The notes beneath the pieces were generated by a model that was not told where the DNA came from, did not search any database, and saw only the letters and a list, made by a program, of their open reading frames with translations. DNA of 64,000 nucleotides from an uncultured Clostridia bacterium (lineage in GTDB: Bacteria; Acidobacteriota; Aminicenantia; UBA2199): contig CAZWFY010000006.1 in assembly GCA_964633415.1 (NCBI GenBank), forward strand, positions 6,099-70,098, given 5' to 3'. Both the position numbers and the translations under genes were made by a program. Positions 5,772-61,633 of the stretch are shown piece by piece (the stretch's first letter is position 1; every line of letters starts with the position of its first letter).

Positions 5772-6731
5772 TTACCTTGTTTTTATTTTTATTCCTCCGA
5801 AAAAGTATGCTATGGAGTTATAGATAAATCCCAAAATCAACGAGGAGATGGAAAAGAAAAGGGATCCGGTTATTCCTCCGAGTGCGGAAAATATTAAACC
5901 ACCCTGGATTTTACCTCTTGTTTCAATCAGCATCTGTGGAAAATGGCTGAGAAAATCATTGAATATATTAAAGATGCCGAAAGACGCTCCGAAGATCACT
6001 CCTAAAATAAGTCCTAATCCTCCCATGAAAAAGATCAGTGAGATTAAATGGACTGAAGTTATTGTCATCATATTGATACTTTTTTTCTTTTTTGATCCGA
6101 GTTCTTTCTGATTTGCACCGCAAAAACTACAAAAAACAGAATAAGACGGTATTTTAGATTGGCAGACAATACAACTCGACATTTTATCTTCATTCTCATC
6201 GTCATTTTCTTCACCGGTTTCGGACGAGATAACTTGTTTTTCACTTTCGTCAGATGAATCTGAAATCTTTGATCTCAGTTCATTTATACCCTTTTCATCC
6301 TGTTTAATAATTGTTGCGGAACTGTCAAGTTCAAGATTTATTTCATTTATGTTATCTTTTTCATCAATTTTTTCATCGGTCTTGGTAAAAGATTCATCTT
6401 TATCGCTGTAGTCTTCGGTTAATTCTATATTTTCTTCATCTTTATTTCCCATATTATCTAAGGTCGGTTTGCTTTCTTCATGGGAGAATTGCTGCGTCAT
6501 CGAAAGATCATTATCCTCGGAATAGGGTAACTTTTCCTTCCACTCTTTACCATCATAGATGTACCATTTCCCGGTGTTACTTCCGATCATCCAGTAATTG
6601 CCGTTTTCATCTCTCAACATAAGTTTTTTCAGTTTTGTTTTCATCTCTTCTTGATCAACTAATCCCTGTTCGAGTTGTAATTTAAGATCATTATATTTAC
6701 CTTCAATTTCAATAAATTTACTTTTATCCAT
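5772..6731 (-). CDS. Hypothetical protein with a SHOCT-like N-terminal domain, an acidic linker, a zinc ribbon (CxxC...CxxC) and a C-terminal hydrophobic domain with about three helices.
   Basis: The N-terminus LKLQLEQGLVDQEEMKTKLKKLML resembles a SHOCT domain. It is followed by WMIGSNTGKWYIYDGKEW, a D/E/S-rich linker, CIVCQSKIPSYSVFCSFCG and Gly-rich TM segments. Confidence 0.55.
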   Translation of the reverse strand: MDKSKFIEIEGKYNDLKLQLEQGLVDQEEMKTKLKKLMLRDENGNYWMIGSNTGKWYIYDGKEWKEKLPYSEDNDLSMTQQFSHEESKPTLDNMGNKDEENIELTEDYSDKDESFTKTDEKIDEKDNINEINLELDSSATIIKQDEKGINELRSKISDSSDESEKQVISSETGEENDDENEDKMSSCIVCQSKIPSYSVFCSFCGANQKELGSKKKKSINMMTITSVHLISLIFFMGGLGLILGVIFGASFGIFNIFNDFLSHFPQMLIETRGKIQGGLIFSALGGITGSLFFSISSLILGFIYNSIAYFFGGIKIKTR

Positions 6732-8017
6732 TAGATTATTCCTCCGGATAACAGGTTTTTCATTTTACCTGAAAGATAAAAAGATCCTGTTATCAAAATA
6801 TCATTTTTAAAAAGTTTTGCCTTTTTTAAAACATCTTCATAATTCTTTATAATAACCGTATTTTTCCCATTAAAATGTGAGATAAGTTTTTCCGCGGGTA
6901 GAGCACGTTTGGAATCTGGTTCGGTAAGAATTATATTTTCCACATATGGTTTAAGATAATCAGCCATTTTTTTATAATTTTTATCGCGTAATACACCAAA
7001 GACAAGAGTCATTCCTTTTTTACCTTTCTCCTTTAAAAATTCACTCAAGGCTTTAATACTCTCTTCGTTATGGCTTGAATCAATAATAATGTAAGGGTTT
7101 TTTGAAAATATTTCAACTCTTCCCGGAACAAAATTAGATTCTATTCCGGAAAAAATCTTTTTTTTCTTAAGATCTATTCCCTGTTCTTTTAAGAGTATGG
7201 AAACCATAAGTGAAGTGTTTGCATTGTCGATCTGATGTCTTCCGTTTAATAATACCTTAAAGGTAAATGTTTCCGTTCTGTAGGAATATTTTACAAGGTA
7301 GTGATTGTCCTCGGTAATATAATCCAGATTTGAATTTTTACCGTAAACAAAATAGACAGGTGCATTAAGATTTTTCGCTATTTTTTTAATTACTTTTGCT
7401 GCAGTCGAATTGGGAGGAGAACCTACAACAACCGGAACATTATGTTTAATTATCCCTGCTTTTTCTGCGGCAATGTCTTTTATATTAGGACCAAGTGTTT
7501 TTGTATGGTCCTTGGATATATTTGTAATGACTGAAACAACAGGAGTGATCGTTGATGTAGCATCAAGTCTTCCTCCAAGCCCAACTTCAAGAACAATGAA
7601 ATCGGCATTCCTCATACAAAAATAATAGAGGGACGTTAAAAAAAGATGTTCAAAATAGGTAGGGGGATTTTGAATGGAACCTTTATCCAATAATTTTTCA
7701 GACAGATTTTTTACATTTCCAAGAGCTTGTGCGAAATCATCTTTAGTAATCCAAGTTTTGTTTATTGTTATTCTTTCTCTGATATTAAGAAGATGGGGTG
7801 AAGTAAAAAGACCGGTAGTATATCCGTTCTTTATAAGAATTGATGTAATGAAATGTGAAGTTGAACCTTTTCCGTTAGTTCCTGCAACTTGAATGAATTT
7901 TTTTTTTTTTAAGTCAAACGGGAAATTATCTATGATCTTTTGGATATTATTAAGCTCTAATTTTGCTCCGTATTCTCTAATCTTGTCAAGATATTGCAGG
8001 GCTTCTTCATAGTTCAT
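6731..8017 (-). CDS. folC: Bifunctional folylpolyglutamate synthase / dihydrofolate synthase.
   Basis: Mur-ligase P-loop VAGTNGKGSTSHF followed by ...TSPHLLNIRERI..., 428 aa. Confidence 0.85.
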   Translation of the reverse strand: MNYEEALQYLDKIREYGAKLELNNIQKIIDNFPFDLKKKKFIQVAGTNGKGSTSHFITSILIKNGYTTGLFTSPHLLNIRERITINKTWITKDDFAQALGNVKNLSEKLLDKGSIQNPPTYFEHLFLTSLYYFCMRNADFIVLEVGLGGRLDATSTITPVVSVITNISKDHTKTLGPNIKDIAAEKAGIIKHNVPVVVGSPPNSTAAKVIKKIAKNLNAPVYFVYGKNSNLDYITEDNHYLVKYSYRTETFTFKVLLNGRHQIDNANTSLMVSILLKEQGIDLKKKKIFSGIESNFVPGRVEIFSKNPYIIIDSSHNEESIKALSEFLKEKGKKGMTLVFGVLRDKNYKKMADYLKPYVENIILTEPDSKRALPAEKLISHFNGKNTVIIKNYEDVLKKAKLFKNDILITGSFYLSGKMKNLLSGGII

Positions 8018-8030
8018 AAAATTTCATCAA

Positions 8031-8261
8031 CTAACTGTTATCTTTACCTTCTTCTTCAAATTCATTATTAACACCAAGAACCAATGCAGCACCGTCATAT
8101 ATCTGTCTTATTGCCTTCTTCTGCTCCTGAAGTCCGTTTATCGTCTCTTTAACTCTGGCAAGTTCCTCATCGATCTTTGCATCAATTATTTCGATCTGCT
8201 TTTTTGATTCCTTTAATGCATTTTCATAAAAAACATTAGCCTCTTCTTTCATTTTTTCCAT
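8031..8261 (-). CDS. Small coiled-coil hypothetical protein (76 aa).
   Basis: The ORF lies 16 nt downstream of the kinase gene. It is predicted to be helical with a charged heptad pattern. Confidence 0.45.
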   Translation of the reverse strand: MEKMKEEANVFYENALKESKKQIEIIDAKIDEELARVKETINGLQEQKKAIRQIYDGAALVLGVNNEFEEEGKDNS

Positions 8262-8277
8262 AGTTAATCTCCTTATG

Positions 8278-11200
8278 TTATTTTATATTTAGTGGAATAG
8301 TTCTCCAAACCTTAACTTTAACTCCATCCTTAATCGCAGGTGAATATTTCCATTTAAGAATTGTTCTTTTAATTATACTATTTACACTGTTTTTTTCAGA
8401 TTTTCTTATTAATTTCACTTTTTCAATTGATCCCATCTCATTTATAAGGAAACTGACAAGTATATTACTACGGGAACCGGCTCTGATACTTCTCGGTAGA
8501 ACAGGAGCAGGAGTTGAGATGGCAACCGGTTTTTTGTCAACTTCACCCAAAGAAACTATTTGACCGGGTTTTGCTCTGTTTTGTTCCGCTATGAGTTTTT
8601 TTCTTGCTTCCTCATCTCTCTTTCTTTTATCAGCTTCTTCCTGAAGTCTCTTCTTCTCATCTTCAATCTTTTGCAATCTGTCGTCTTCCTCTTTTTTCTT
8701 TCTTGCTTCCTCTTGAAGTCTTATTCTTTCAGCTTCTGCTTCTCTCTTCTTCTTATCTAAGGCTAAACGTCTCTTTTTTTCCAACTCTTTCTTTTTCTTT
8801 ATTGCATCCTGTTTTTTCTTTTCCTCTTTAAGTTTTTCTTCAGGAGTCATCTCATTCTGATTTTTATCTTTAATTACCGATTTGTTATCTGATTCTCCGG
8901 TTAAATTATCAGTCGTCTGAGGAGGAATTATTCCCATGTTTTTATCGGTATTAAGAGTACTGTCCAAGGTTTGTCCGCTGCTGTTAATATCAGGGTTGGA
9001 AGAATTGGGAAGACCATTGGAATCAGTAAGTTTATCATCTTTTTTATCTACTACAAACTTTTTTACTTCAGGAGGATTTAGATCAACCGAATCGGAATTA
9101 TCGTTATTAAAACTATTGGAAAGAAAATATATTCCTGCAGCAACTGCAATTATTATAAATAGGAGAACTAAAATTGGTCTGACAACTCTCTTTTTTTTAA
9201 ATTTTTCAATATTAAGTGATTCGGGGATCTGTGAAATCGAATTCTTTGAACTATTATATTCATTAACTTTTTTGTTATCGTAAGATAAATCAATTGTAGA
9301 TTCAGTAACATCTTTTTCATCCGGAGTATCCGACGGATACTTTTCAGGTTCATTCTGTTCTGATTTAACATCAATTGATTCAGGCAAAACCTCTTCATCT
9401 CCGTCATCTTCGGTAGGTAAATTTATAATATTGGGAGGCTCAGGTGGATTATCACTCGAAACAAGATTAATTTCCCGACTCTTTTTTAGATCTTTTACCG
9501 GATGTTCGATCTCTTCTTTTGTTGTTATTCTTGTTATTTCAAAAGGAATCTGACTGAGATTGACTCTTATACCGTCTTTTAATATTTCATCCTTGAAAAG
9601 ATCATAAAGGCAAACATTAATATGAATGGGTGTGGGTATGTGGTTGAAATTTTTATATAAATATGCTTCAAGATCTTTGCTCATTTCCGCAGCGTTTGAG
9701 TATCTTTTTGATTTATTAATTTCAAGAGATTTAAGAATTATTCTTTCGAGATCAGGATCAATGTCCGGAATAAACTCCGAAGGAAGTGTTATCTTTCCAT
9801 CTTGAACTTTTTTTAACACTTCTATTTCGGAAGATCCTTTAAATAGTTTTTGTCCGGTCAACAGTTCGAATAAAATTGCACCTACGGAATATATATCAGA
9901 TCTTTTATCAATATTTTTATCGGCTTTTGCTTGTTCGGGAGACATATATAAAAGTTTTCCTTTTAAAGCACCTGAAAGTGTCTGATGAAGCTTGTTGGAA
10001 GCTTTAGAAACTCCAAAATCGGTTATTTTCACTTCTCCGGTATAAGAAAGAAGAATGTTCGGAGGAGAAATATCTCTATGGACGATCTCAAGGTTATTTC
10101 CGTATTTGTCTTTTGCAGAGTGAGCATAACTTAATGCATCAAGAATCTTTAGAGAAATATAAATTGAAATATATTCTTCTAATTTGGTTTTCTTTTCGGA
10201 TAATTTACGAAGAATAAGTCGAAGGTCTTTCCCTTCGACATATTCCATTGCTATGAAATAGTAATTATCTTTTTGACCGAAATCATATATCTGGACAATA
10301 TTAGGGTGAGATAATTCGGATGCTATCTTTGCCTCGTCAACAAACATTTCAATATATTTGTCATCATCTCCGTAACCTGAAAGAATTTTTTTTATTGCAA
10401 GTATTTTTTCAAATCCCTGTACTCCTCTCTTTTTTGCTTTATAAATTTCCGCCATGCCGCCTCTGGCAATAAGTCCCAATATTTCATATCCTTCTATCTC
10501 ATTTTTTTTCTGATCTTTATTCTCTTTTTCAGGTTTATAATTTTTCTGCGGTTTTTTATCTTTTTTAATAACCTCAGGCTCAACGGTTTTTTCTACACTC
10601 TCTTTTTTTATAACATTATGATCTTTTATCCCGAGACCTGAAAGAGTCTCTTCAAATTTTTTCATAATATCTTCTTCGATCTTTTTCTCTGCTTTTTTAT
10701 CTTTTTTCCCGGTATCAGTTTTAATTATATCTTTAAGATCAATATTGATCTTTTCGTCATTGATTTTTCTTATGCTATTTTTACCGGAGGTTTTTTCGAA
10801 GGCTTCACGTGATAAAATCTGAGTTATCTGAGCTTTTTTATCAGCTTCTTTTTTGACAGAGTTGCTCATTCCTTTGTCCGAAGTTAAATCTTCTTTATCA
10901 AGCTCTATTTTATGCTCCGGAATATTTTCAACATTGTCAATCAAGTCTCCGAAAATATCTTCTGAAGATAATTTATTTTGATTTTTTATAAAATCGCCGG
11001 ACGGAGTTTTGATTTTTTTTGTATCAAAAACAGGAATCTGTGTAGTGCCAGGATCAGTTTTACCTTCCACATCGTCTTTGGTAATCTCAAGAAGATTTAA
11101 TACTGAATTAAAAAACGTTGTGTCGTTGAAAGGTTTTTCTATAAATTCATCCGCTTGATATTCACTTATTGCTTTATTCCTGTATTCGGTACCTTTATAT

Positions 11201-11454
11201 ACACCGCTGATTACAATAACTTTTGAATCGGGATTAGTCTCTTTTGAGAATTTGGATAACTCGAAGCCGTGAAATTTAGGCAGCATTGCAGCACAAATAA
11301 GAAGATCGAATTTTTTCTTCTTTATTAATTTTTTAGCAACATCACCTTCACTAGCAATGGAAATTTCAAAAACAGATGAAGATAAAATATCTTTAATATT
11401 CTCAATCGTAGGAGAATCATATTCAACCAATAATACATTTTTTTTCATATTCAT
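8278..11454 (-). CDS. Multidomain signalling protein: pseudo-receiver (REC-like) domain, Hanks-type Ser/Thr protein kinase, TM helix, periplasmic K/E-rich coiled coil and TonB C-terminal domain.
   Basis: The REC-like N-terminus has KFDLLICAAMLP where the phospho-acceptor Asp is replaced by Ala. The kinase carries IARGGMAEIY...LAIKK, HRDISPPNIL, DFG and SPE motifs. The TM helix is RPILVLLFIIIAVAAGIYFL. The KKKKELEKKRRLALDKKKREAEAERIRLQEE coiled coil follows. The C-terminus PVLPRSIRAGSRSNILVSFLINEMGSIEKVKLIRKSE...ILKWKYSPAIKDGVKVKVW is TonB_C-like. Confidence 0.85.
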   Translation of the reverse strand: MNMKKNVLLVEYDSPTIENIKDILSSSVFEISIASEGDVAKKLIKKKKFDLLICAAMLPKFHGFELSKFSKETNPDSKVIVISGVYKGTEYRNKAISEYQADEFIEKPFNDTTFFNSVLNLLEITKDDVEGKTDPGTTQIPVFDTKKIKTPSGDFIKNQNKLSSEDIFGDLIDNVENIPEHKIELDKEDLTSDKGMSNSVKKEADKKAQITQILSREAFEKTSGKNSIRKINDEKINIDLKDIIKTDTGKKDKKAEKKIEEDIMKKFEETLSGLGIKDHNVIKKESVEKTVEPEVIKKDKKPQKNYKPEKENKDQKKNEIEGYEILGLIARGGMAEIYKAKKRGVQGFEKILAIKKILSGYGDDDKYIEMFVDEAKIASELSHPNIVQIYDFGQKDNYYFIAMEYVEGKDLRLILRKLSEKKTKLEEYISIYISLKILDALSYAHSAKDKYGNNLEIVHRDISPPNILLSYTGEVKITDFGVSKASNKLHQTLSGALKGKLLYMSPEQAKADKNIDKRSDIYSVGAILFELLTGQKLFKGSSEIEVLKKVQDGKITLPSEFIPDIDPDLERIILKSLEINKSKRYSNAAEMSKDLEAYLYKNFNHIPTPIHINVCLYDLFKDEILKDGIRVNLSQIPFEITRITTKEEIEHPVKDLKKSREINLVSSDNPPEPPNIINLPTEDDGDEEVLPESIDVKSEQNEPEKYPSDTPDEKDVTESTIDLSYDNKKVNEYNSSKNSISQIPESLNIEKFKKKRVVRPILVLLFIIIAVAAGIYFLSNSFNNDNSDSVDLNPPEVKKFVVDKKDDKLTDSNGLPNSSNPDINSSGQTLDSTLNTDKNMGIIPPQTTDNLTGESDNKSVIKDKNQNEMTPEEKLKEEKKKQDAIKKKKELEKKRRLALDKKKREAEAERIRLQEEARKKKEEDDRLQKIEDEKKRLQEEADKRKRDEEARKKLIAEQNRAKPGQIVSLGEVDKKPVAISTPAPVLPRSIRAGSRSNILVSFLINEMGSIEKVKLIRKSEKNSVNSIIKRTILKWKYSPAIKDGVKVKVWRTIPLNIK

Positions 11455-11562: not shown

Positions 11563-12084
11563 TCAAAAGTCAAAATAGAGATCACGCTGTTTTTCAAGTA
11601 TTTTCAATTTATCTCTCACTTTCCAATTTACCGGCATTACAATAAGAATAATTAAGACGGAAGTTACAAAAAAATGAAATGTTCTGTTGAAAGGGACACC
11701 CATGAAAGATATAATGATGCCTAAAATTGAAACAGACTCCCCAAGTCCCAGAAGAATAATATCAAGTTTTTTCCATGTTTTTAGGATATCTTTTAAAGAC
11801 ATTGAATCTTTAACAAACTTCGGAGAGTAATAAATTGTCTTTCGAACCGTTAAAATTGAGATGACTATCATTATTGCAAGAATGTTGAAAGCATTATAAA
11901 TATTGGTGATAGTGGCATATTTAATTCCGAATAATTTAACAGTGCTGTTTTTTAATAATAGAATCGGGATTAATGCATATATGACAACAGATATTACCAT
12001 TGCAAAGCTGATCAAAATCGTTTTTTTTGTCTCTTCCCTGATTATACGATTGTTCTCCTTAAATTTACTCTCTCCGTTTTCCAT
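11563..12084 (-). CDS. Hypothetical integral membrane protein.
   Basis: 173 aa with about four hydrophobic helices. No recognisable motif. Confidence 0.45.
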   Translation of the reverse strand: MENGESKFKENNRIIREETKKTILISFAMVISVVIYALIPILLLKNSTVKLFGIKYATITNIYNAFNILAIMIVISILTVRKTIYYSPKFVKDSMSLKDILKTWKKLDIILLGLGESVSILGIIISFMGVPFNRTFHFFVTSVLIILIVMPVNWKVRDKLKILEKQRDLYFDF

Positions 12085-28072: not shown

Positions 28073-28540
28073 TTGGTTTTGAAAAATGCAAATAGATTTG
28101 TTGTAATTCTTATTATAGCTTTTGGTGTTCATTTCTGTAATTATAAAAGCGAACCCGAAAAAGTTTGGGGGTTAAGGTCGAAAATCATAGAATTGGCGGA
28201 ATCGCTGAAAGGAATAAAATATCAATATGGCGGTTCTGAAATATATGGGTTCGATTGTTCAGGGTTTGTAAAATATGTTTACGGATCATTCGGGATTGAT
28301 ATACCGCGTACTGCTAAGAAGCAGGGAAAAATAAAACATAGAGTTAGATTTGACAAAGCTAAGCCCGGTGATATTCTGATTTTTAAAATATCACGTAAAA
28401 AATGGCATTCCGGAATCTATATTAACGAAAAATATTTTATCCATTCTCCGAACGGAAGAGGTTATATAAGAAGAGAAAAGTATAGTGGATATTGGATTAA
28501 AAAAATGAAATATGTAATTTCAATAATAGAAAGATATTAA
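28073..28540 (+). CDS. NlpC/P60 (C40) cell-wall peptidase.
   Basis: GFDCSGFVKYVY catalytic Cys motif with a downstream His (WHSGIYI). The true start may be internal. Confidence 0.75.
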   Translation: MVLKNANRFVVILIIAFGVHFCNYKSEPEKVWGLRSKIIELAESLKGIKYQYGGSEIYGFDCSGFVKYVYGSFGIDIPRTAKKQGKIKHRVRFDKAKPGDILIFKISRKKWHSGIYINEKYFIHSPNGRGYIRREKYSGYWIKKMKYVISIIERY

Positions 28541-29373
28541 TGTTTTTCCTTTTTATTAATAATATCAAAAAGTTTTTCCGAAATTAAAGTTACCCTCGGT
28601 CCGGGTCTCAGCCAGAATTGATCTTTAACAACAAAAATCTTTTTATTTAGAACTGCTGAAATATTGTTGAATTTATTCCATTGCTTAATAATGTCCCTTG
28701 AACTGCTCTTTTTTAAGAAATAGATAAATTCAATGATTATATCCGGATTCATATTGATAACCGATTCTATAGAAACCGTTGGATAGTTTAATTTTCCTTT
28801 ATAACAGTTTATTCCTCCGGAATATTTTAGAATTTCATTGAGATAGTCTCCCTTACCGATGATTATCATATTTCTAAGATGAAAAGGATCTCTTGAAATA
28901 ATTATAAGTACTTTCTTTTTTATACCCTTTGTTTTAAGAGAAATCTTATATAATTTATTTTTAATGGTCTTAACGGTTTGATTTCCTTTTTCCTTTTTGT
29001 TTAAAGCAACAGCTATTGTCTCAATTGATCTATATAAATCTTTTAAACTTTTATGCTCAAGAGAAATAAGTTTGACTTTCTTATTAAAAATTTTTATTTT
29101 TTCATAGTGTTCCGGATAATGAAATATTATATCCGGTTTTAATGAAATTATTTCTTCAATATTAAGATCGATAAATCCTCCGATTTTATTAATATGTCTC
29201 GCTTCTTTCGGATAATCGCAAAATTTTGTAACTCCTACAAGTCTGTTTCCCGAGCCCAGTTTGAAAATTATTTCCGTAATTCCTGGTGCAAGAGAAATCA
29301 GTCTCTGTGGAAATATCTGAAAACATAAGAATAACAGTCCTAATAAAAAGGGAGGAGTTATCGATCTTTTCAT
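28537..29373 (-). CDS. Periplasmic binding protein of the cobalamin/siderophore type (BtuF/FecB-like).
   Basis: Signal peptide then LISLAPGITEIIFKLGSGNRLVGVTKFCDYP, typical of class III SBPs. It lies 3 nt downstream of the TonB-dependent receptor. Confidence 0.7.
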   Translation of the reverse strand: MKRSITPPFLLGLLFLCFQIFPQRLISLAPGITEIIFKLGSGNRLVGVTKFCDYPKEARHINKIGGFIDLNIEEIISLKPDIIFHYPEHYEKIKIFNKKVKLISLEHKSLKDLYRSIETIAVALNKKEKGNQTVKTIKNKLYKISLKTKGIKKKVLIIISRDPFHLRNMIIIGKGDYLNEILKYSGGINCYKGKLNYPTVSIESVINMNPDIIIEFIYFLKKSSSRDIIKQWNKFNNISAVLNKKIFVVKDQFWLRPGPRVTLISEKLFDIINKKEKH

Positions 29374-29376
29374 CTT

Positions 29377-31215
29377 CTAATTATATAAAATTCCTATTTC
29401 AAATCTTCTTCCCGGCGTTAAATATCCGAATATTTCGGAATATTTTGAATTGAAAAGATTTGTAAGTTTTCCATACACATTAAATTTCTTTTTAACCGGG
29501 ATGGTGATGTTCAGATTGTAAACGTTATAGGAAGGCATATTTATGTCGGGCGGGTATATCATGAAATTATAATCTCCTCTTTTACCTACATAGATTGTAT
29601 TGAAACCTACGGTGAAGTGAGGGCTTGAATATCTGACTGAAGCTGTAAGAGAATCTTTCGGTCTTCTTTTAAGAGGTAGTCCTGTTGATTCATCAATGCT
29701 TTTCAAATGTGTATATGAGAGTTCAAAAACAGTATTTTTAATAATGGAAGAAGAGAAGGAAAATTCAATACCGTCGATTTTTGCCTCTTTAATATTCTGA
29801 TATTGTCCTCGCCATGTAACGGGATCAATTGTAACCCAATCAATCATATCTTTGTATGTAGATTTGAAAATCGTAAGACCTAAAATATGTTTTTTTAAAA
29901 AAATATCAGCTCCGATTTCACCTGAAACTCCCTTTTCCGGTAGTAAATTGAAATTCGGAGCTCCCCATGGATTTATCTGCTGAAGAAGAAGAGGTGCCTT
30001 GAAACTTTGGGAATATGATGTTCTGATCTTTATATTGCTATTGATTTTAAATGCAACTCCCAACTGTGGCGAAAAGTTAGCTTTTACACTCTTATATTTA
30101 TCAAATCTGATTGAAGATGTTAAAAATATAAATCCCAGGTCGGCATCTGCTTTAATAAAAGATGAAAAATAGTTTCTTGATTTGTTATCTATAACAGTCT
30201 TGGTACTGTTTGCGGAAAAAATTTTTGTAGATGAATAATCGAATCCTACACTAATATCAATATTTTTGCTTAAATATGAGTTGAAAACAGTATCAATCTC
30301 AATGTTTTTTGATCTGTTGGTATAATAGGGACTCCATTTATCATCGCTATCCTCAAATTTGTAGGAATTTCCGTTAAAAGATAAAGTTGTTCTTATTTTT
30401 GAATTTTCGCCGAGATTAAATATTAGAGGAACTGCAGCTATAAAATTATTACTTTTAAATTTTCTATTAGGTGAAGATTTGCCGGAATTGTTAAATGGGA
30501 TTCCCGAGTCGACACTGTTAAGAAAAAAGAGTAATCCGCCATTTAAGAAACCATCACTTTTAAAATCAATCTTTCCGTGAAATCCTATGTTTTTAAATAG
30601 ATCATTTATTGAATTATCTTTATAATTTTGGATAGAAGAAGAGACGGAGTATAAAATCCCGTTTTTTTGATTGCTTGTTGAAAAATTTGCCTGATATGAC
30701 CCGTGACTTCCGGTGTTTAACAGCACTTTTGTACCGTTGCTCCCTCCGAGAGAGATATTAACAACTCCTCCCATTGCATCCGAACCGTAGATACTGCTTA
30801 ACGGTCCTTTAACAACTTCAACTTTTTTGATAAGAAAAGCAGGTAGAAGAGAGAGATTTATTCCTCCTATGCTGGAATCGTCCCTTATTTTGATACCGTC
30901 AATCAGATAGAGAATCTGAGTGTTCCTCGATCCTCTGATGAAAGTTGATGATGACTGACCGAATTTACCATTGGAAAGTGTAAGAACTCCCGGAGACATA
31001 GAGAGTACTTCTTTTAAGTTAACCATTTTCAATGCTTGAATCTCATCATTTTCAACAACCGAAATACTTTGAATCGATTTACCGATGGGGATGTGACCTA
31101 TAACTTCAATGTATTCAACTTTTTCTTTTGAAATTTCTTCGGGATTTTTTTCATTTGAAAAAGTAGAAAACGATAATAGAAAAATAGATAAAACAACTGT
31201 AAATAATTTGATCAT
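29377..31215 (-). CDS. TonB-dependent outer-membrane receptor, probably for cobalamin (BtuB-like).
   Basis: Signal peptide, plug domain (IRGSRNTQILYLIDGIKIRD), a 22-strand barrel length and a C-terminal aromatic residue. A cobalamin riboswitch lies upstream. Confidence 0.85.
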   Translation of the reverse strand: MIKLFTVVLSIFLLSFSTFSNEKNPEEISKEKVEYIEVIGHIPIGKSIQSISVVENDEIQALKMVNLKEVLSMSPGVLTLSNGKFGQSSSTFIRGSRNTQILYLIDGIKIRDDSSIGGINLSLLPAFLIKKVEVVKGPLSSIYGSDAMGGVVNISLGGSNGTKVLLNTGSHGSYQANFSTSNQKNGILYSVSSSIQNYKDNSINDLFKNIGFHGKIDFKSDGFLNGGLLFFLNSVDSGIPFNNSGKSSPNRKFKSNNFIAAVPLIFNLGENSKIRTTLSFNGNSYKFEDSDDKWSPYYTNRSKNIEIDTVFNSYLSKNIDISVGFDYSSTKIFSANSTKTVIDNKSRNYFSSFIKADADLGFIFLTSSIRFDKYKSVKANFSPQLGVAFKINSNIKIRTSYSQSFKAPLLLQQINPWGAPNFNLLPEKGVSGEIGADIFLKKHILGLTIFKSTYKDMIDWVTIDPVTWRGQYQNIKEAKIDGIEFSFSSSIIKNTVFELSYTHLKSIDESTGLPLKRRPKDSLTASVRYSSPHFTVGFNTIYVGKRGDYNFMIYPPDINMPSYNVYNLNITIPVKKKFNVYGKLTNLFNSKYSEIFGYLTPGRRFEIGILYN

Positions 31216-31244
31216 AAAGATCCTCCTGTTTTTTTTTATGGAGG

Positions 31245-31445
31245 GTAAAATTTTATCTTAAACACGCCCTCCGCACGTTAAGATATTATTAAGGATTAAT
31301 AGGTCTTCCGACTCCCGGGAATCTTAGATGCCTTCCCCTTCAAAAATATGAAGAGTGGCTTAATCTCAAAGACCATATCTTTAAAAAAGACCCGGTCACG
31401 GCAGCGGGGGCTGTGGGGTTTTAAACCCTCTTCCCTTGAATTAAA
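31245..31445 (-). ncRNA. Cobalamin (AdoCbl) riboswitch.
   Basis: The minus-strand RNA reads ...AAGGGAAGAGGGTTTAAAACCCCACAGCCCCCGCTGCCGTGACCGGG..., matching the conserved GGGAA...GGTnnAAnnCC...GCCGTGA core. A GCCACTC element follows. A B12-box-like GAGTCGGAAGACC follows, then a GGAGGG/CCCTCC helix next to the RBS. Confidence 0.7.
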
Positions 31446-31457
31446 CCTTAAAAATAA

Positions 31458-31486
31458 ATTTTAATTCAATTATATTTCCATGTCAA
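31458..31486 (-). promoter_or_regulatory. Promoter TTGACA-17-TAAAAT for the riboswitch/btuB transcript.
   Basis: On the minus strand, TTGACA lies at 31486-31481 and TAAAAT at 31463-31458. The transcription start falls just 5' of the riboswitch. Confidence 0.4.
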
Positions 31487-31720: not shown

Positions 31721-33358
31721 ATGAATATTGATCAGGGATCGTTAAAAGAAACTCCTGCAGGAGCTCTTTTATTAAAAATTTTTGAAGAAGGTAAAAGCGG
31801 AGTTCTGTACCTTAAACGTGATGAAATATTAAAAGAGCTTTATATTGACAGAGGAAAAATAGTTTGGGTAGCATCAAACTCCGAAGTTGATACGCTTGAG
31901 AATATGTTGATACTTCATAAAAGAGTTGAAAAACAAAATATTGATCAGATAAAAATGAATTCTAAAAACGAGATAGAGCTGGGGAAAAATCTTGTTGAAA
32001 AAGGAATGCTGACCTTGGAGGAACTGATAGAATTCTCAAAAGTTCAAATGAGAAAAATAGTTAAAAGTATTTTGAAATGGGGTGACGGGGTTTACTATTT
32101 TTCAAAAGATGTTCCTGCGAATACTTTTATAAATTTAGAAATAGATTTGAAAAAATTTGTATTTGATTTTGTTAAAGTTGATTTGGATATGGGATTTATT
32201 TGGAAAGGCATCGGCTCTTTTCAAGAACTATTTTTAAAATCGGAAGATAATAAAAAGATAGAAAAATATGATCTCTCACAGGCTGAACTTGAATTGCTTG
32301 ATAAATTTACAGGCGAAGTAAATGTTGAGGTTATTTCTCTTAATTTTGTCGGTTTACCAAAAGAGGAAATTTTAAAGACCATATACTTTTATCTACTTGC
32401 AGGACTTCTATATAAAAAAGATGATTATATTGAAGAGGATGAAAGATTAAAAGTACCGGATAATCTTATTTCAGAGTCAAAGAAAGACCCAATAAATTTA
32501 GATAATGAAATTTCCGAAATAGAACAGATTGATCTAGATGATATTAATGAAGAAGAGTCATATTCTTATGAAAAGGAATTTAAAAAAGATATAGATGAAA
32601 AAGAGAAAACTGTTTTAGATAATAAGGATGTTATTGAAGAGGATATTTCAATAACTGATAAAATGTTACAGGATCTTAATAAAGAAGAGACAAAAAAGAA
32701 GAGTAAAATATTTAATATTTTCTTTATATTAGTTGTTATTGCGATAATTATTGCAGGTGTAGTGCTTTTTGTACTTGATAAAGGAGACAATATTGCAAAA
32801 AACACTATAATTAACAAACCGGTTAAAAAGAGTGCTGATTCAAAAGGAATGGATAGGAACCCTGATAAGAAAAACGAATTGTCTACTTCAAAATCTTTAA
32901 TAAAAAGTGTTAATGAAGAAAACAATGTAAAAGGAGTTAAGGCAGATACAGGTCTGTCTCTTAAAAAAAGTGATAAACCTTCTGCTATTGTAAAAAATCT
33001 TAAAAAAGATAATTCTAAAATAGATAGTAGAACTCCGTTTGACTATTTTAATAGTGGAAGATTTGTTAAAGCCGGAAATCTCTGGAGAAAAGATTTACTT
33101 AATTCCGATTATAAATATTCCGTTTTACTTGAGCTTGATTGTCAAAAGGAATCGGTAAAATATGCGTATAGAAAAATTAAAAATAAGATCAATTTTTTTA
33201 TAATTAATCACACGAGAAATGGAAAAAACTGTTATCTTGTTTTATACGGGAGATATAAGACGGATCTTGATGCTTTGCGTTCAATTGACTTCTTACCAAA
33301 ATATTTCCTTAATCAAAAAAATCCACCTAGAGTCCTTGAATTGGCAAAATATCTCTGA
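31721..33358 (+). CDS. DUF4388-domain protein with an acidic linker, a TM helix and a C-terminal SPOR-like domain.
   Basis: The N-terminus LKETPAGALLLKIFEEGKSGVLYL...GKIVWVAS is DUF4388-like. A TM helix IFFILVVIAIIIAGVVLFVL follows. The C-terminus YSVLLELDCQ...CYLVLYGRYKTDLDALRSID is SPOR-like. Confidence 0.55.
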   Translation: MNIDQGSLKETPAGALLLKIFEEGKSGVLYLKRDEILKELYIDRGKIVWVASNSEVDTLENMLILHKRVEKQNIDQIKMNSKNEIELGKNLVEKGMLTLEELIEFSKVQMRKIVKSILKWGDGVYYFSKDVPANTFINLEIDLKKFVFDFVKVDLDMGFIWKGIGSFQELFLKSEDNKKIEKYDLSQAELELLDKFTGEVNVEVISLNFVGLPKEEILKTIYFYLLAGLLYKKDDYIEEDERLKVPDNLISESKKDPINLDNEISEIEQIDLDDINEEESYSYEKEFKKDIDEKEKTVLDNKDVIEEDISITDKMLQDLNKEETKKKSKIFNIFFILVVIAIIIAGVVLFVLDKGDNIAKNTIINKPVKKSADSKGMDRNPDKKNELSTSKSLIKSVNEENNVKGVKADTGLSLKKSDKPSAIVKNLKKDNSKIDSRTPFDYFNSGRFVKAGNLWRKDLLNSDYKYSVLLELDCQKESVKYAYRKIKNKINFFIINHTRNGKNCYLVLYGRYKTDLDALRSIDFLPKYFLNQKNPPRVLELAKYL

Positions 33359-60005: not shown

Positions 60006-60758
60006 TTGATTATTACCATTGCTAATCAGAAAGGAGGGGTTGGAAAAACAACAACTTCCATTAATTTGGCTGCTGCTTTTGCATTTATGGGGCATAAAAC
60101 ACTTTTAATTGATATGGATCCCCAAGCCAACTCAACAGTGTCATTTATAAATTCTCATGATGTTTCACTATCTTCTTATGATTTTCTTGAGGATGATAAA
60201 TTAGATTATAAAGAAGTTGTCAGAGATTCCGGAATTATTAATCTCTCGATTATTCCCGCTTCAATATCGCTTGCAAAGCTTGAATCAAAGCTGATAGGGG
60301 AGATAGACAGCCATTTTCGTCTTAAAGATAAGATTGAGAGGATTCGCTATAACTTTGATTTTATAATAATCGATACTCCACCGACATTGGGTTTAATAAC
60401 GATAAACTCTCTTGTAGCTGCTTCACATCTGATAATTCCGATCCAATCATCATATTATGCACTTGAGGGAACTGATGATCTTCTTGAAACTTTTGAAAAA
60501 GTAAGAATGAGAAGTAATCCTAATCTTGAACTGCTCGGAGTTCTCGTCACTATGTTTGATAAGAGAATGGTGATAGCAAAGGACAGTCTCGCACACATCA
60601 AGAAACTTTTCGGAAATAAAGTTTTCAAGACTGTTATTTCTAAGAATGTAAGACTTGAGGAGAGTCCGGCGTATAAAGAATCAATTTTTACCTTTGCACC
60701 TAATTCAAAAGGTGCTTCGGATTATAAAAAATTAGCGGAGGAAGTATTAAAGATATGA
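60006..60758 (+). CDS. parA: Chromosome-partitioning ATPase ParA/Soj.
   Basis: Deviant Walker A ANQKGGVGKTTTSINLA, 250 aa, TTG start. Confidence 0.9.
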   Translation: MIITIANQKGGVGKTTTSINLAAAFAFMGHKTLLIDMDPQANSTVSFINSHDVSLSSYDFLEDDKLDYKEVVRDSGIINLSIIPASISLAKLESKLIGEIDSHFRLKDKIERIRYNFDFIIIDTPPTLGLITINSLVAASHLIIPIQSSYYALEGTDDLLETFEKVRMRSNPNLELLGVLVTMFDKRMVIAKDSLAHIKKLFGNKVFKTVISKNVRLEESPAYKESIFTFAPNSKGASDYKKLAEEVLKI

Positions 60759-61633
60759 CAAGAAAAGTAGGCCTTCCGGAATTTGTAAAGTCCCGATATG
60801 ACAACCATTTTGTTGATGAAATCTCAGCAAGAACAAAAACTTCAATAATAAGAAAAATACCTCTATCCCGAATAGTTCCTAATCTGTTACAACCGAGGAA
60901 AAATTTTAATGACCTAAATGAACTTTCCGACTCAATAAAAGAGAAAGGGATATTGGAACCACTATTAGTAAGACCTAAAGAGGGAAATTTTGAAATAATT
61001 GCCGGAGAAAGAAGATATAGAGCTGCTAAAATTGCAGGTTTAACAGAAGTTCCATGTATAGAGTATGATGTTCCTGATAATGAAGCTTTGGAAATATCAA
61101 TAATTGAGAATATACAGAGAAAAGATCTGGATGTATTTGAAAAAGCATACTCTTTAAAATCACTTTCAGAAATTTATGGATATACTCATGAAGATATAGC
61201 AAAAAACTTAGGAAAATCAAGGGTAACGATCTCTGAATTAATAAAAATTACAGAGTTACCGGAAGATATAGTGGATATGTGCAGAGAGGCAAAAATAGAA
61301 TCTAAATCTTTCCTTTTGCAAATGGTTAAATTAAAAGACCATGACGAAATGATAAAAATTGTTGCAGAGTATAAAAAAAATCCTTTTTCGAGAGAGGAAG
61401 TTAAAGCTCTTAGAAATAAAATAGCTTCCGGAGATAAAAAAGCTGTTGGTAATTCAGAAAAAACAGTTAAACCGATTAAATTCAAATTTGTATCTGAAGA
61501 TAAAAACATTAGAATTGATTTCAAAATAAAGAAAACAGATGATAAACACAGTAATATTGACTCTATATTAAAAATGTTGGAAAAACTTATAGAGGATATA
61601 AAAGTAGGAAATATTAAAGATCTCGATATTTAA
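60755..61633 (+). CDS. parB: Chromosome-partitioning protein ParB/Spo0J.
   Basis: ParB box LLQPRKNF...ILEPLLVRP...EIIAGERRYRAAKIAGL and an HTH region. The start overlaps the parA stop. Confidence 0.9.
   Translation: MTRKVGLPEFVKSRYDNHFVDEISARTKTSIIRKIPLSRIVPNLLQPRKNFNDLNELSDSIKEKGILEPLLVRPKEGNFEIIAGERRYRAAKIAGLTEVPCIEYDVPDNEALEISIIENIQRKDLDVFEKAYSLKSLSEIYGYTHEDIAKNLGKSRVTISELIKITELPEDIVDMCREAKIESKSFLLQMVKLKDHDEMIKIVAEYKKNPFSREEVKALRNKIASGDKKAVGNSEKTVKPIKFKFVSEDKNIRIDFKIKKTDDKHSNIDSILKMLEKLIEDIKVGNIKDLDI

Follow-up and report, generated by a model that had tools for sequence, protein, structure and literature searches.

We analysed a 64 000-nt stretch of DNA (here called the window; positions 6,099 to 70,098 of contig CAZWFY010000006.1, assembly GCA_964633415.1), which is titled an uncultured Clostridia bacterium and has a GTDB lineage in the Aminicenantia of the Acidobacteriota. 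The analysis is concerned with one of its genes, whose product joins a receiver-like domain and a Hanks-type Ser/Thr kinase, through a single transmembrane (TM) helix, to a periplasmic stalk ending in a TonB C-terminal domain (TonB_C). The gene is a real, strongly conserved and uncharacterised member of a receptor-kinase family of Aminicenantes, with an unusual sensor domain. Its domains are identified and so is its topology; all three domains are conserved in a way that implies function, the gene forms a conserved pair with its downstream neighbour, and relatives exist in which the modules are combined differently.

As to the function, the interpretation we prefer, to which we would give slightly less than an even chance, is that the protein is a bitopic trans-envelope receptor Ser/Thr kinase whose TonB_C tip is docked on one conserved partner in the outer membrane or the periplasm. 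If true, a TonB-type docking domain serving as the sensor of a kinase would be a new type of input. Among the extracytoplasmic sensors of Hanks kinases in bacteria, it is mainly the PASTA domains of monoderms that are well understood, and few routes are known by which diderm bacteria signal from the outer membrane to the cytoplasm, e.g. anti-sigma cell-surface signalling, Rcs and Cpx.

No publication on the kinase–TonB_C architecture was found in our literature searches, in agreement with a preliminary description of the window, made from the sequence letters, which named no characterised example. Public annotation already shows the architecture: some homologs are named ‘TonB family protein’, and among the IMG names is one beginning ‘serine/threonine protein kinase/CheY-like chemotaxis protein/outer membrane biosynthesis protein’.

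Gene and domain architecture

The gene is a single open reading frame (ORF) of 1058 codons, with exactly the coordinates given in the preliminary description. Translation probably begins with the second ATG, at 11448 (M3), yielding a protein of 1056 aa, since this codon has AGGAG 7 nt upstream, the identical database protein has 1056 aa and the family consensus begins MKKN. Pfam models matched for Response_reg (residues 7–115, E 2e-14), Pkinase (residues 323–588, E 3e-44) and TonB_C (residues 989–1056), all above their curated thresholds. Together with a hydropathy scan and an AlphaFold2 (AF2) model, these matches bear out the domain order read earlier from the letters (Table 1).

Table 1. Segments of the kinase gene and the other genes of its cluster, in window coordinates
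Feature	Coordinates	Strand	Basis or remark
Whole ORF: pseudo-receiver, Hanks kinase, TM helix, spacer, charged helix, TonB_C	8278..11454	-	ORF, Pfam and database match
Pseudo-receiver, residues 7–115	11110..11436	-	Pfam, alignment to solved receivers, family columns
Cytoplasmic linker, mostly disordered, residues 116–322	10489..11109	-	Conservation, low pLDDT
Hanks-type Ser/Thr kinase domain, residues 323–588	9691..10488	-	Pfam, NCBIfam, family alignment
Post-kinase helical extension, conserved, residues 589–640	9535..9690	-	Conservation, AF2 model
Single TM helix, about residues 759–779	9118..9180	-	Hydropathy scan, AF2 model
Periplasmic S/N/D/P-rich disordered spacer, residues 780–877	8824..9117	-	pLDDT <50; unconserved
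K/E/R-rich helix of 81 residues, 878–958	8581..8823	-	AF2 model, composition
TonB C-terminal domain, residues 959–1058	8281..8580	-	Pfam, family profile, AF2 and Foldseek
173-aa four-TM protein, unknown family	11563..12084	-	Always directly upstream of the kinase gene
cc76, 76-aa helical protein with acidic tail	8031..8261	-	Starts 16 nt past the kinase stop; no Pfam family
folC (folylpolyglutamate/dihydrofolate synthase)	6731..8017	-	Always downstream of cc76
319-aa Zn-ribbon protein with C-terminal TM bundle	5772..6731	-	Last gene of the cluster; start overlaps the folC stop

The TonB C-terminal domain

The TonB_C match scored 31.1 bits against a gathering cut-off of 24.6 and started at profile position 9. 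We built a family profile from 51 C-termini (the C-terminal 104 residues) and searched it against PDB: only TonB chains were matched, with all of the top 14 being TonB, eight of them at E <0.01 and the best at 3e-4. The AF2 model of the domain had a pLDDT (predicted score in the local distance difference test) of 92.4, and its 16 best Foldseek matches were all C-terminal domains of TonB, HasB or FusB; TolA domains came next, with far weaker scores. The best match, with TM-score 0.85 and root mean square deviation 1.6 Å, was 6i97_D, the Pseudomonas aeruginosa TonB C-terminal domain in complex with the transporter FoxA. Thus the domain proposed from the letters holds in both the profile and the structure comparison.

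Two features of TonB are missing from the family. The YP motif is absent, the position aligned to Escherichia coli Y163-P164 being I/L-x, and the residues of the Q160 region differ. The last strands carry instead a signature of the family itself, W+Y.PA.K..V.VKVW+T, and nowhere is the domain conserved better than in the last strand (VRVKVWKT), where V1047 and W1050 are invariant and K1048 and K1051 are kept in at least 90% of the sequences. In TonB–receptor complexes it is the last β-strand of the TonB C-terminal domain that pairs with the TonB box. The near-invariance of this edge strand suggests a single conserved partner rather than many receptors.

Membrane topology and periplasmic stalk

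The hydropathy scan gave exactly one TM segment, at residues 761–779, which a KKKR cluster precedes. A single TM helix with a Lys-rich N-flank places the receiver and the kinase in the cytoplasm and the last 279 residues in the periplasm; the predicted N-in/C-out topology is therefore the one described earlier. The helix was poorly conserved, only Tyr/Trp near the periplasmic end being kept in the 119 homologs aligned. No His and no SHLS motif was present in the TM helix of any of these homologs, nor was there a conserved polar motif, and the helix probably acts as a plain anchor.

The S/N/D/P-rich spacer that had been read after the TM helix is indeed there, as some 100 disordered and unconserved residues, with a median Pro fraction in the family of 6%. 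The length of the periplasmic part is constrained across the 119 homologs, staying within 223–316 aa. The next segment had been taken for a K/E-rich coiled coil of ∼90 aa. We found it to be 70% charged and 14% hydrophobic, with 34 i/i+4 pairs of opposite charge and a heptad a/d occupancy of 0.38 at best; high charge, few hydrophobic residues and such an a/d occupancy fit a single charged α-helix of 81 residues better than a coiled coil. The helix would probably make a stalk of ∼12 nm and, added to the disordered spacer, should be long enough to cross the peptidoglycan.

The kinase domain

The Pkinase (PF00069) match scored 152 bits against a cut-off of 31.7 and covered profile positions 1–254 of 263. 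The preliminary description stated that all catalytic motifs were present, which is largely the case: invariant in 119 sequences were K355 (VAIK), E374 (αC), D461 (HRD), N466, D479 (DFG) and S505-P506-E507, along with H490, T492 and G495 of the activation loop (HxT). Two positions depart from the canon. All 121 members have Ser where HRDxKxxN has its catalytic-loop Lys (HRD[IV]SPPN; HRDISPPN in the window protein), and the first Gly of the G-loop is Ala in the window kinase. Invariance of the remaining motifs implies selection that would be unexpected for a dead enzyme, and the columns as a whole suggest an active kinase that is atypical at one site. Literature searches returned no paper on the activity of kinases with an HRDxSPxN catalytic loop.

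The closest solved kinases were Staphylococcus aureus Stk1, StkP and Mycobacterium tuberculosis PknB (E 1.6e-40 to 4eqm); the best NCBIfam model, PknB_PASTA_kin, scored 269 bits, below its cut-off of 450 bits. Outside the family, the nearest relatives were Myxococcota kinases with 38–49% identity (best tblastn segment) across the kinase domain. Their catalytic loop reads HRD[VI]SP[QS]N, and many of them share part of the conserved post-kinase C-terminal helix. We considered whether the fusion could have been inherited from this sister clade and ruled it out, because the sister kinases (L025–L083, with the exception of L075, which is a fragment of the Aminicenantes family itself) are without receiver and TonB_C domains; cc76 and the other genes of the cluster were likewise absent from these loci.

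The pseudo-receiver and the linker

The Response_reg match scored 54 bits against a cut-off of 30.2, and 58 solved receivers were matched. AF2 gave the domain a (βα)5 fold, with pLDDT of ∼85–98 in every ten-residue block. In HMMER alignments the phospho-Asp of CpxR, DrrD and NtrC1 fell on Ala55, and the acceptor column at the end of β3 was Ala in 120 of the 121 family sequences. The earlier claim that this receiver cannot be phosphorylated is thus upheld even after alignment to solved receivers. The same description held that the other residues of the active site are kept, and this is so for Ser83 in β4 (equivalent to Thr87; invariant) and for Lys107 in β5 (equivalent to Lys109; 120 of 121). 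The acidic pair after β1 is retained in part only: E11 is there, while the second position is an invariant Tyr12.

The loop TAAMLP[KR]FHGF is nearly unchanged in the family, with AMLP and HGF invariant and T54, A55 and F61 each conserved in 115 or more of the 121 sequences. Such a loop points, on grounds of conservation, to a conserved interaction surface rather than to decay. The linker between receiver and kinase has low pLDDT, with two short helices in the model, and contains three conserved short motifs: TTQxPxxDTxKIP, SSxDIFGDII and KKIEDDIxKKFEDTLSGLG.

Distribution of the family and of related architectures

We found >100 full-length homologs with the same architecture and 39–59% identity, labelled ‘protein kinase’ or ‘TonB family protein’ from Candidatus Aminicenantes or Acidobacteriota; a precomputed Pfam match to TonB_C was present in 81 of the 120 homologs listed. 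In species-representative genomes, full-length matches came from metagenome-assembled genomes (MAGs) of Aminicenantes and from a few MAGs labelled differently. Six loci with the full cluster (L005, L009, L015, L018, L020 and L023) were titled ‘uncultured Clostridia bacterium’, ‘Chrysiogenales’ or ‘Deferrimicrobium’; these records are probably mislabelled or mis-binned MAGs.

A census of the architecture was taken more widely with the TonB_C profile, which gave 8623 matches at E ≤1e-3 against 1.84 billion representatives. Among the best 150 of these matches, which we classified, there were five other architectures combining Pkinase with one to four TonB_C domains. One example is HEX9639142.1 (Acidobacteriota), with a kinase and three TonB_C domains; a divergent kinase with four TonB_C domains is encoded in the same 9.1-Mb Aminicenantes genome as a member of the family. 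The kinase–TonB_C fusion, as judged from these architectures, is recurrent in Acidobacteriota.

The same 150 matches included six kinase-less proteins of 600–710 aa, in which a single TM helix lies between a receiver and TonB_C: P0331 (L084, 10001–11965), P0356, P0364, P0373, P0374 and P0379. Theirs is again a pseudo-receiver, whose signature is close to that of the window protein: it has Glu at the acceptor position, Tyr or Phe as the second acidic residue and a loop of the form E[AP][MF]LPK.[HG]GF. They appear to constitute an undescribed family. Because this backbone exists without the kinase, the kinase can be regarded as an add-on to an older tether module: the pseudo-receiver–TM–TonB_C backbone appears, from its distribution, to be the older unit, into which the kinase was inserted later. 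The matches also included one Zn-ribbon–TM–TonB_C protein and ∼70 proteins with two to seven tandem TonB_C domains, e.g. P0245, P0260, P0265 and P0273. An N-terminal kinase is present in some of the tandem proteins, followed by three copies in P0266 and by four in P0259.

Short proteins with family-like C-terminal domains were considered as canonical TonB paralogs and set aside, as many of the 18 inspected look truncated: six had no initial Met and several began at, or just before, the TM region of the family. This inspection covered proteins of 230–447 aa; the shortest matches (56–190 aa) fall outside that range.

The conserved gene cluster and its surroundings

The order 173-aa four-TM protein, kinase, cc76, folC and Zn-ribbon membrane protein was found in 24 of 24 loci, as far as the contigs reach. 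The genes are tightly packed in the window, with 16 nt between kinase and cc76, 13 nt between cc76 and folC, and an overlap of 1 nt between folC and the Zn-ribbon gene. Of the two proteins in the pair, cc76 is the better conserved: it was 65–92% identical across the loci, versus 39–65% for the kinase in the same loci (best tblastn segment). We found 185 homologs of cc76, named ‘hypothetical’, and among the 120 matches listed all had 74–96 aa. One homolog (48% identity, E 4e-11; L085, 13411–13665) follows a divergent receiver–kinase–TonB_C gene, P0362, whose other neighbours are different; the kinase and cc76 thus form a conserved unit, and from this linkage cc76 is likely to be a partner of the kinase.

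Pfam and NCBIfam scans of cc76, of the 173-aa membrane protein and of the Zn-ribbon protein gave nothing significant. A weak similarity of cc76 to DivIVA and Tektin (E 0.04–0.08) was disregarded. A SHOCT-like helix at the N-terminus, a hairpin rich in Trp and Tyr and an acidic linker can be made out in the Zn-ribbon protein, along with the CxxC...CxxC zinc ribbon and three TM segments; modules of the Zn-ribbon type adjoining receptor-like membrane proteins have been discussed for relatives of GltJ (PMC11135422).

A gene for an RlpA-SPOR protein lies divergently upstream in the window and in the closest relatives, and this linkage is lost in more distant members.

The window encodes one TonB-dependent receptor (29377–31215, minus strand; 612 aa), a BtuB-like protein 18 kb away from the kinase gene, with a Plug from residue 46 followed by the barrel. 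A cobalamin riboswitch (RF00174, 64.9 bits, 31281–31460) stands upstream of it and a BtuF-like Peripla_BP_2 gene (28537–29373, minus strand) downstream, so that by gene content 28537–31460 (minus strand) makes up a unit of the BtuB/BtuF-like kind for B12 uptake. The receptor has a candidate TonB box, VEYIEVIG, after its signal peptide; Pfam reported no N-terminal signalling domain ahead of the Plug. Since the window encodes a TonB-dependent receptor, the organism is a diderm in need of some TonB.

Nearly all ORFs of the window were scanned with Pfam, a few short ones being excluded. Neither these ORFs nor the annotated flanks of three homologous loci gave a MotA_ExbB/ExbD match, and the same held for sigma and anti-sigma domains (e.g. 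FecR); no other TonB_C protein was found among the scanned ORFs. In none of the 24 family loci, including their annotated flanks, was a TonB-dependent receptor, exbB or exbD observed beside the gene.

Two more regions of the window may be mentioned. Divergent from the riboswitch–receptor unit lies a gene for a 545-aa protein with an N-terminal DUF4388 (31721–33358, plus strand), and a ParA/ParB pair (60006–61633, plus strand) adjoins the genes for the Der GTPase and IspF. From the latter pair, the window may be close to the chromosomal origin region.

Possible functions

In the interpretation we prefer, the TonB_C tip would attach itself by β-strand augmentation to a strand resembling a TonB box in one conserved partner of the outer membrane or the periplasm. 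This docking would alter the local concentration or the pairing of the kinase domains, and pairing would lead to trans-autophosphorylation of the activation loop (T492) and of the Thr/Ser motifs in the linker, and then to phosphorylation of substrates. The pseudo-receiver may serve as a regulatory, dimerisation or docking module that works independently of phosphorylation, and cc76 may be the cytoplasmic partner of the kinase. The system is probably not energised by ExbBD. The protein would be part of a wider modular set in Acidobacteriota, where the same TonB_C subtype is borne by different heads: a pseudo-receiver alone, other kinases or a Zn-ribbon.

Several observations weigh against this interpretation. 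The partner, the docking, the activity of the kinase, its control by docking and the direction of signalling are all proposals made from sequence, and the regulatory role given to the pseudo-receiver is an inference as well. The Ser in place of the catalytic-loop Lys is a further difficulty, one that the Myxococcota sister kinases share. In the full-length AF2 model, which was otherwise confident in its domains, the N-lobe of the kinase (residues 323–402, nt ∼10249–10488) had pLDDT of only 31–55 and helical content; its sequence aligns normally and with good coverage to the N-lobe of Stk1, and the low confidence is probably a modelling artefact of a shallow, family-only alignment. Finally, a charged helix of at least 40 aa was present in only 64 of 119 members, so the design of the stalk varies.

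The preliminary description had put forward a different mechanism, a kinase alternative to FecR-type signalling, in which the TonB_C tip binds the TonB boxes of ligand-occupied TonB-dependent receptors and their occupancy is read out as Ser/Thr phosphorylation. The fold is that of a genuine TonB, its best structural match is receptor-bound, the topology and the periplasmic reach are suitable, and the genome has at least one TonB-dependent receptor (the one in the window) with a plausible TonB box and no N-terminal signalling extension. The genomic context speaks otherwise: synteny with any receptor was absent from the 24 loci and from the Pfam-annotated flanks, and the gene behaves as a housekeeping gene with a fixed genomic place, a relative being found in each Aminicenantes MAG returned. 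Moreover, the YP motif and the Q160-region residues are not kept, the near-invariant edge strand suggests one partner, and the kinase-less relatives share the same TonB_C subtype. Such a mechanism is possible, but with a TM helix devoid of the His motif, no exbBD nearby and no receptor synteny it is unsupported, and we consider it unlikely.

One could also think of the protein as an inside-out or structural tether from the cytoplasm to the peptidoglycan or the outer membrane, with the kinase and the pseudo-receiver controlling or reporting assembly, e.g. in envelope growth or division. The existence of pseudo-receiver–TM–TonB_C proteins without a kinase and of the Zn-ribbon–TM–TonB_C variant would fit such a tether, as would the kinship of the kinase domain with the cell-wall kinases Stk1, StkP and PknB and the divergently placed rlpA gene of the window and the closest relatives. 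There are precedents too. In Myxococcus xanthus, GltJ (ZnR+GYF) and GltG (FHA) each cross the membrane once and dock on GltD through TonB-C-like domains in the periplasm (PMC11135422, PMC11761067), and the TonB-like protein SjdR shapes septal peptidoglycan (PMC8262864). In these published cases TonB_C domains are used outside energy transduction, and the present family shows as well that a protein cannot be called an energy transducer from its TonB_C annotation alone. Against a tether stand the lack of Agl-, Tol- or Exb-type motor genes and of division genes in the conserved cluster, the loss of the rlpA linkage in more distant members, and the fact that no evidence for peptidoglycan binding was obtained. 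On balance we regard a tether as a doubtful alternative.

That the protein is the working TonB of the organism, or one of several, energised by ExbB/ExbD and carrying the receiver–kinase part as a regulatory appendage, we hold to be very unlikely: the TonB-like topology, the periplasm-spanning spacer and the TonB_C fold agree with it, the receptor in the window needs some TonB and the scanned ORFs included no second TonB_C protein, but the TM helix has neither His nor a conserved polar motif in the 119 members, the spacer is not a Pro-rich rigid one, the YP motif is missing, MotA_ExbB/ExbD matches are absent from the 64-kb window and from the annotated flanks of three loci, and a canonical tonB-exbBD operon is likely to lie elsewhere in the genome, of which 64 kb were seen.

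Our preferred interpretation, a receptor kinase docked on one conserved partner, can be taken further. One could speculate that TonB_C is a general periplasmic plug-in sensor in Acidobacteriota and that the kinase reads the exposure of a TonB-box-like strand without ExbBD or a sigma/anti-sigma pair, with cc76 as a dedicated cytoplasmic transducer and possibly a TonB-dependent receptor as the partner; we think this extension improbable as it stands. The gene is conserved in all Aminicenantes genomes sampled and has relatives that swap the cytoplasmic head, and the kinase, the pseudo-receiver and the 76-aa partner make a tractable set for asking whether β-strand docking at the outer membrane drives phosphorylation.

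Comparison with known systems

With TonB, HasB and FusB the window protein shares a single N-in membrane pass, a long periplasmic spacer and the C-terminal fold. It differs in having ∼750 cytoplasmic residues, where TonB has about 10, and the family is without the SHLS/His motif of the TM helix, the Pro-rich spacer, the YP motif and any exbBD linkage that we could see.

Like PknB, Stk1 and StkP it is built as a bitopic receptor kinase, N-in, in which a single TM helix leads to an extracytoplasmic sensor, and it is likewise a kinase of the arginine–aspartate (RD) type with an activation-loop Thr. PASTA domains are absent; a TonB_C borne by a charged helical stalk serves as the sensor and the host is a diderm. 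Unlike the PASTA kinases, the window protein adds an N-terminal pseudo-receiver and has Ser for the catalytic-loop Lys.

The FecA-FecR-FecI system is a conceptual analogue, since there, too, a single-pass protein of the inner membrane passes on an event at the outer membrane, across the periplasm, to a regulator in the cytoplasm. That route, however, makes use of an N-terminal signalling domain of the receptor, an anti-sigma factor and an extracytoplasmic function (ECF) sigma factor.

By their description, GltJ and GltG have the same general architecture: cytoplasmic signalling domains, a single TM helix, a long and flexible stretch in the periplasm and a TonB-C-like domain that docks on a partner there or in the outer membrane. 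Their cytoplasmic heads are different, and in neither is there a domain with enzyme function. They act together with the AglRQS motor and with Glt partners, whereas no TolQR/ExbBD-like motor genes or Glt partner genes were found in the conserved cluster or in the window.

Acceptor-less receiver folds are used as interaction modules in FrzS, in the N-domain of KaiA and in the plant pseudo-response regulators (PRRs), and the window protein resembles these in keeping the receiver fold with the phospho-acceptor replaced. Its subtype differs from them in having a near-invariant signature of its own (E-Y-D, then TAAMLP[KR]FHGF), and it is specifically coupled to TM–TonB_C proteins, with or without a kinase.

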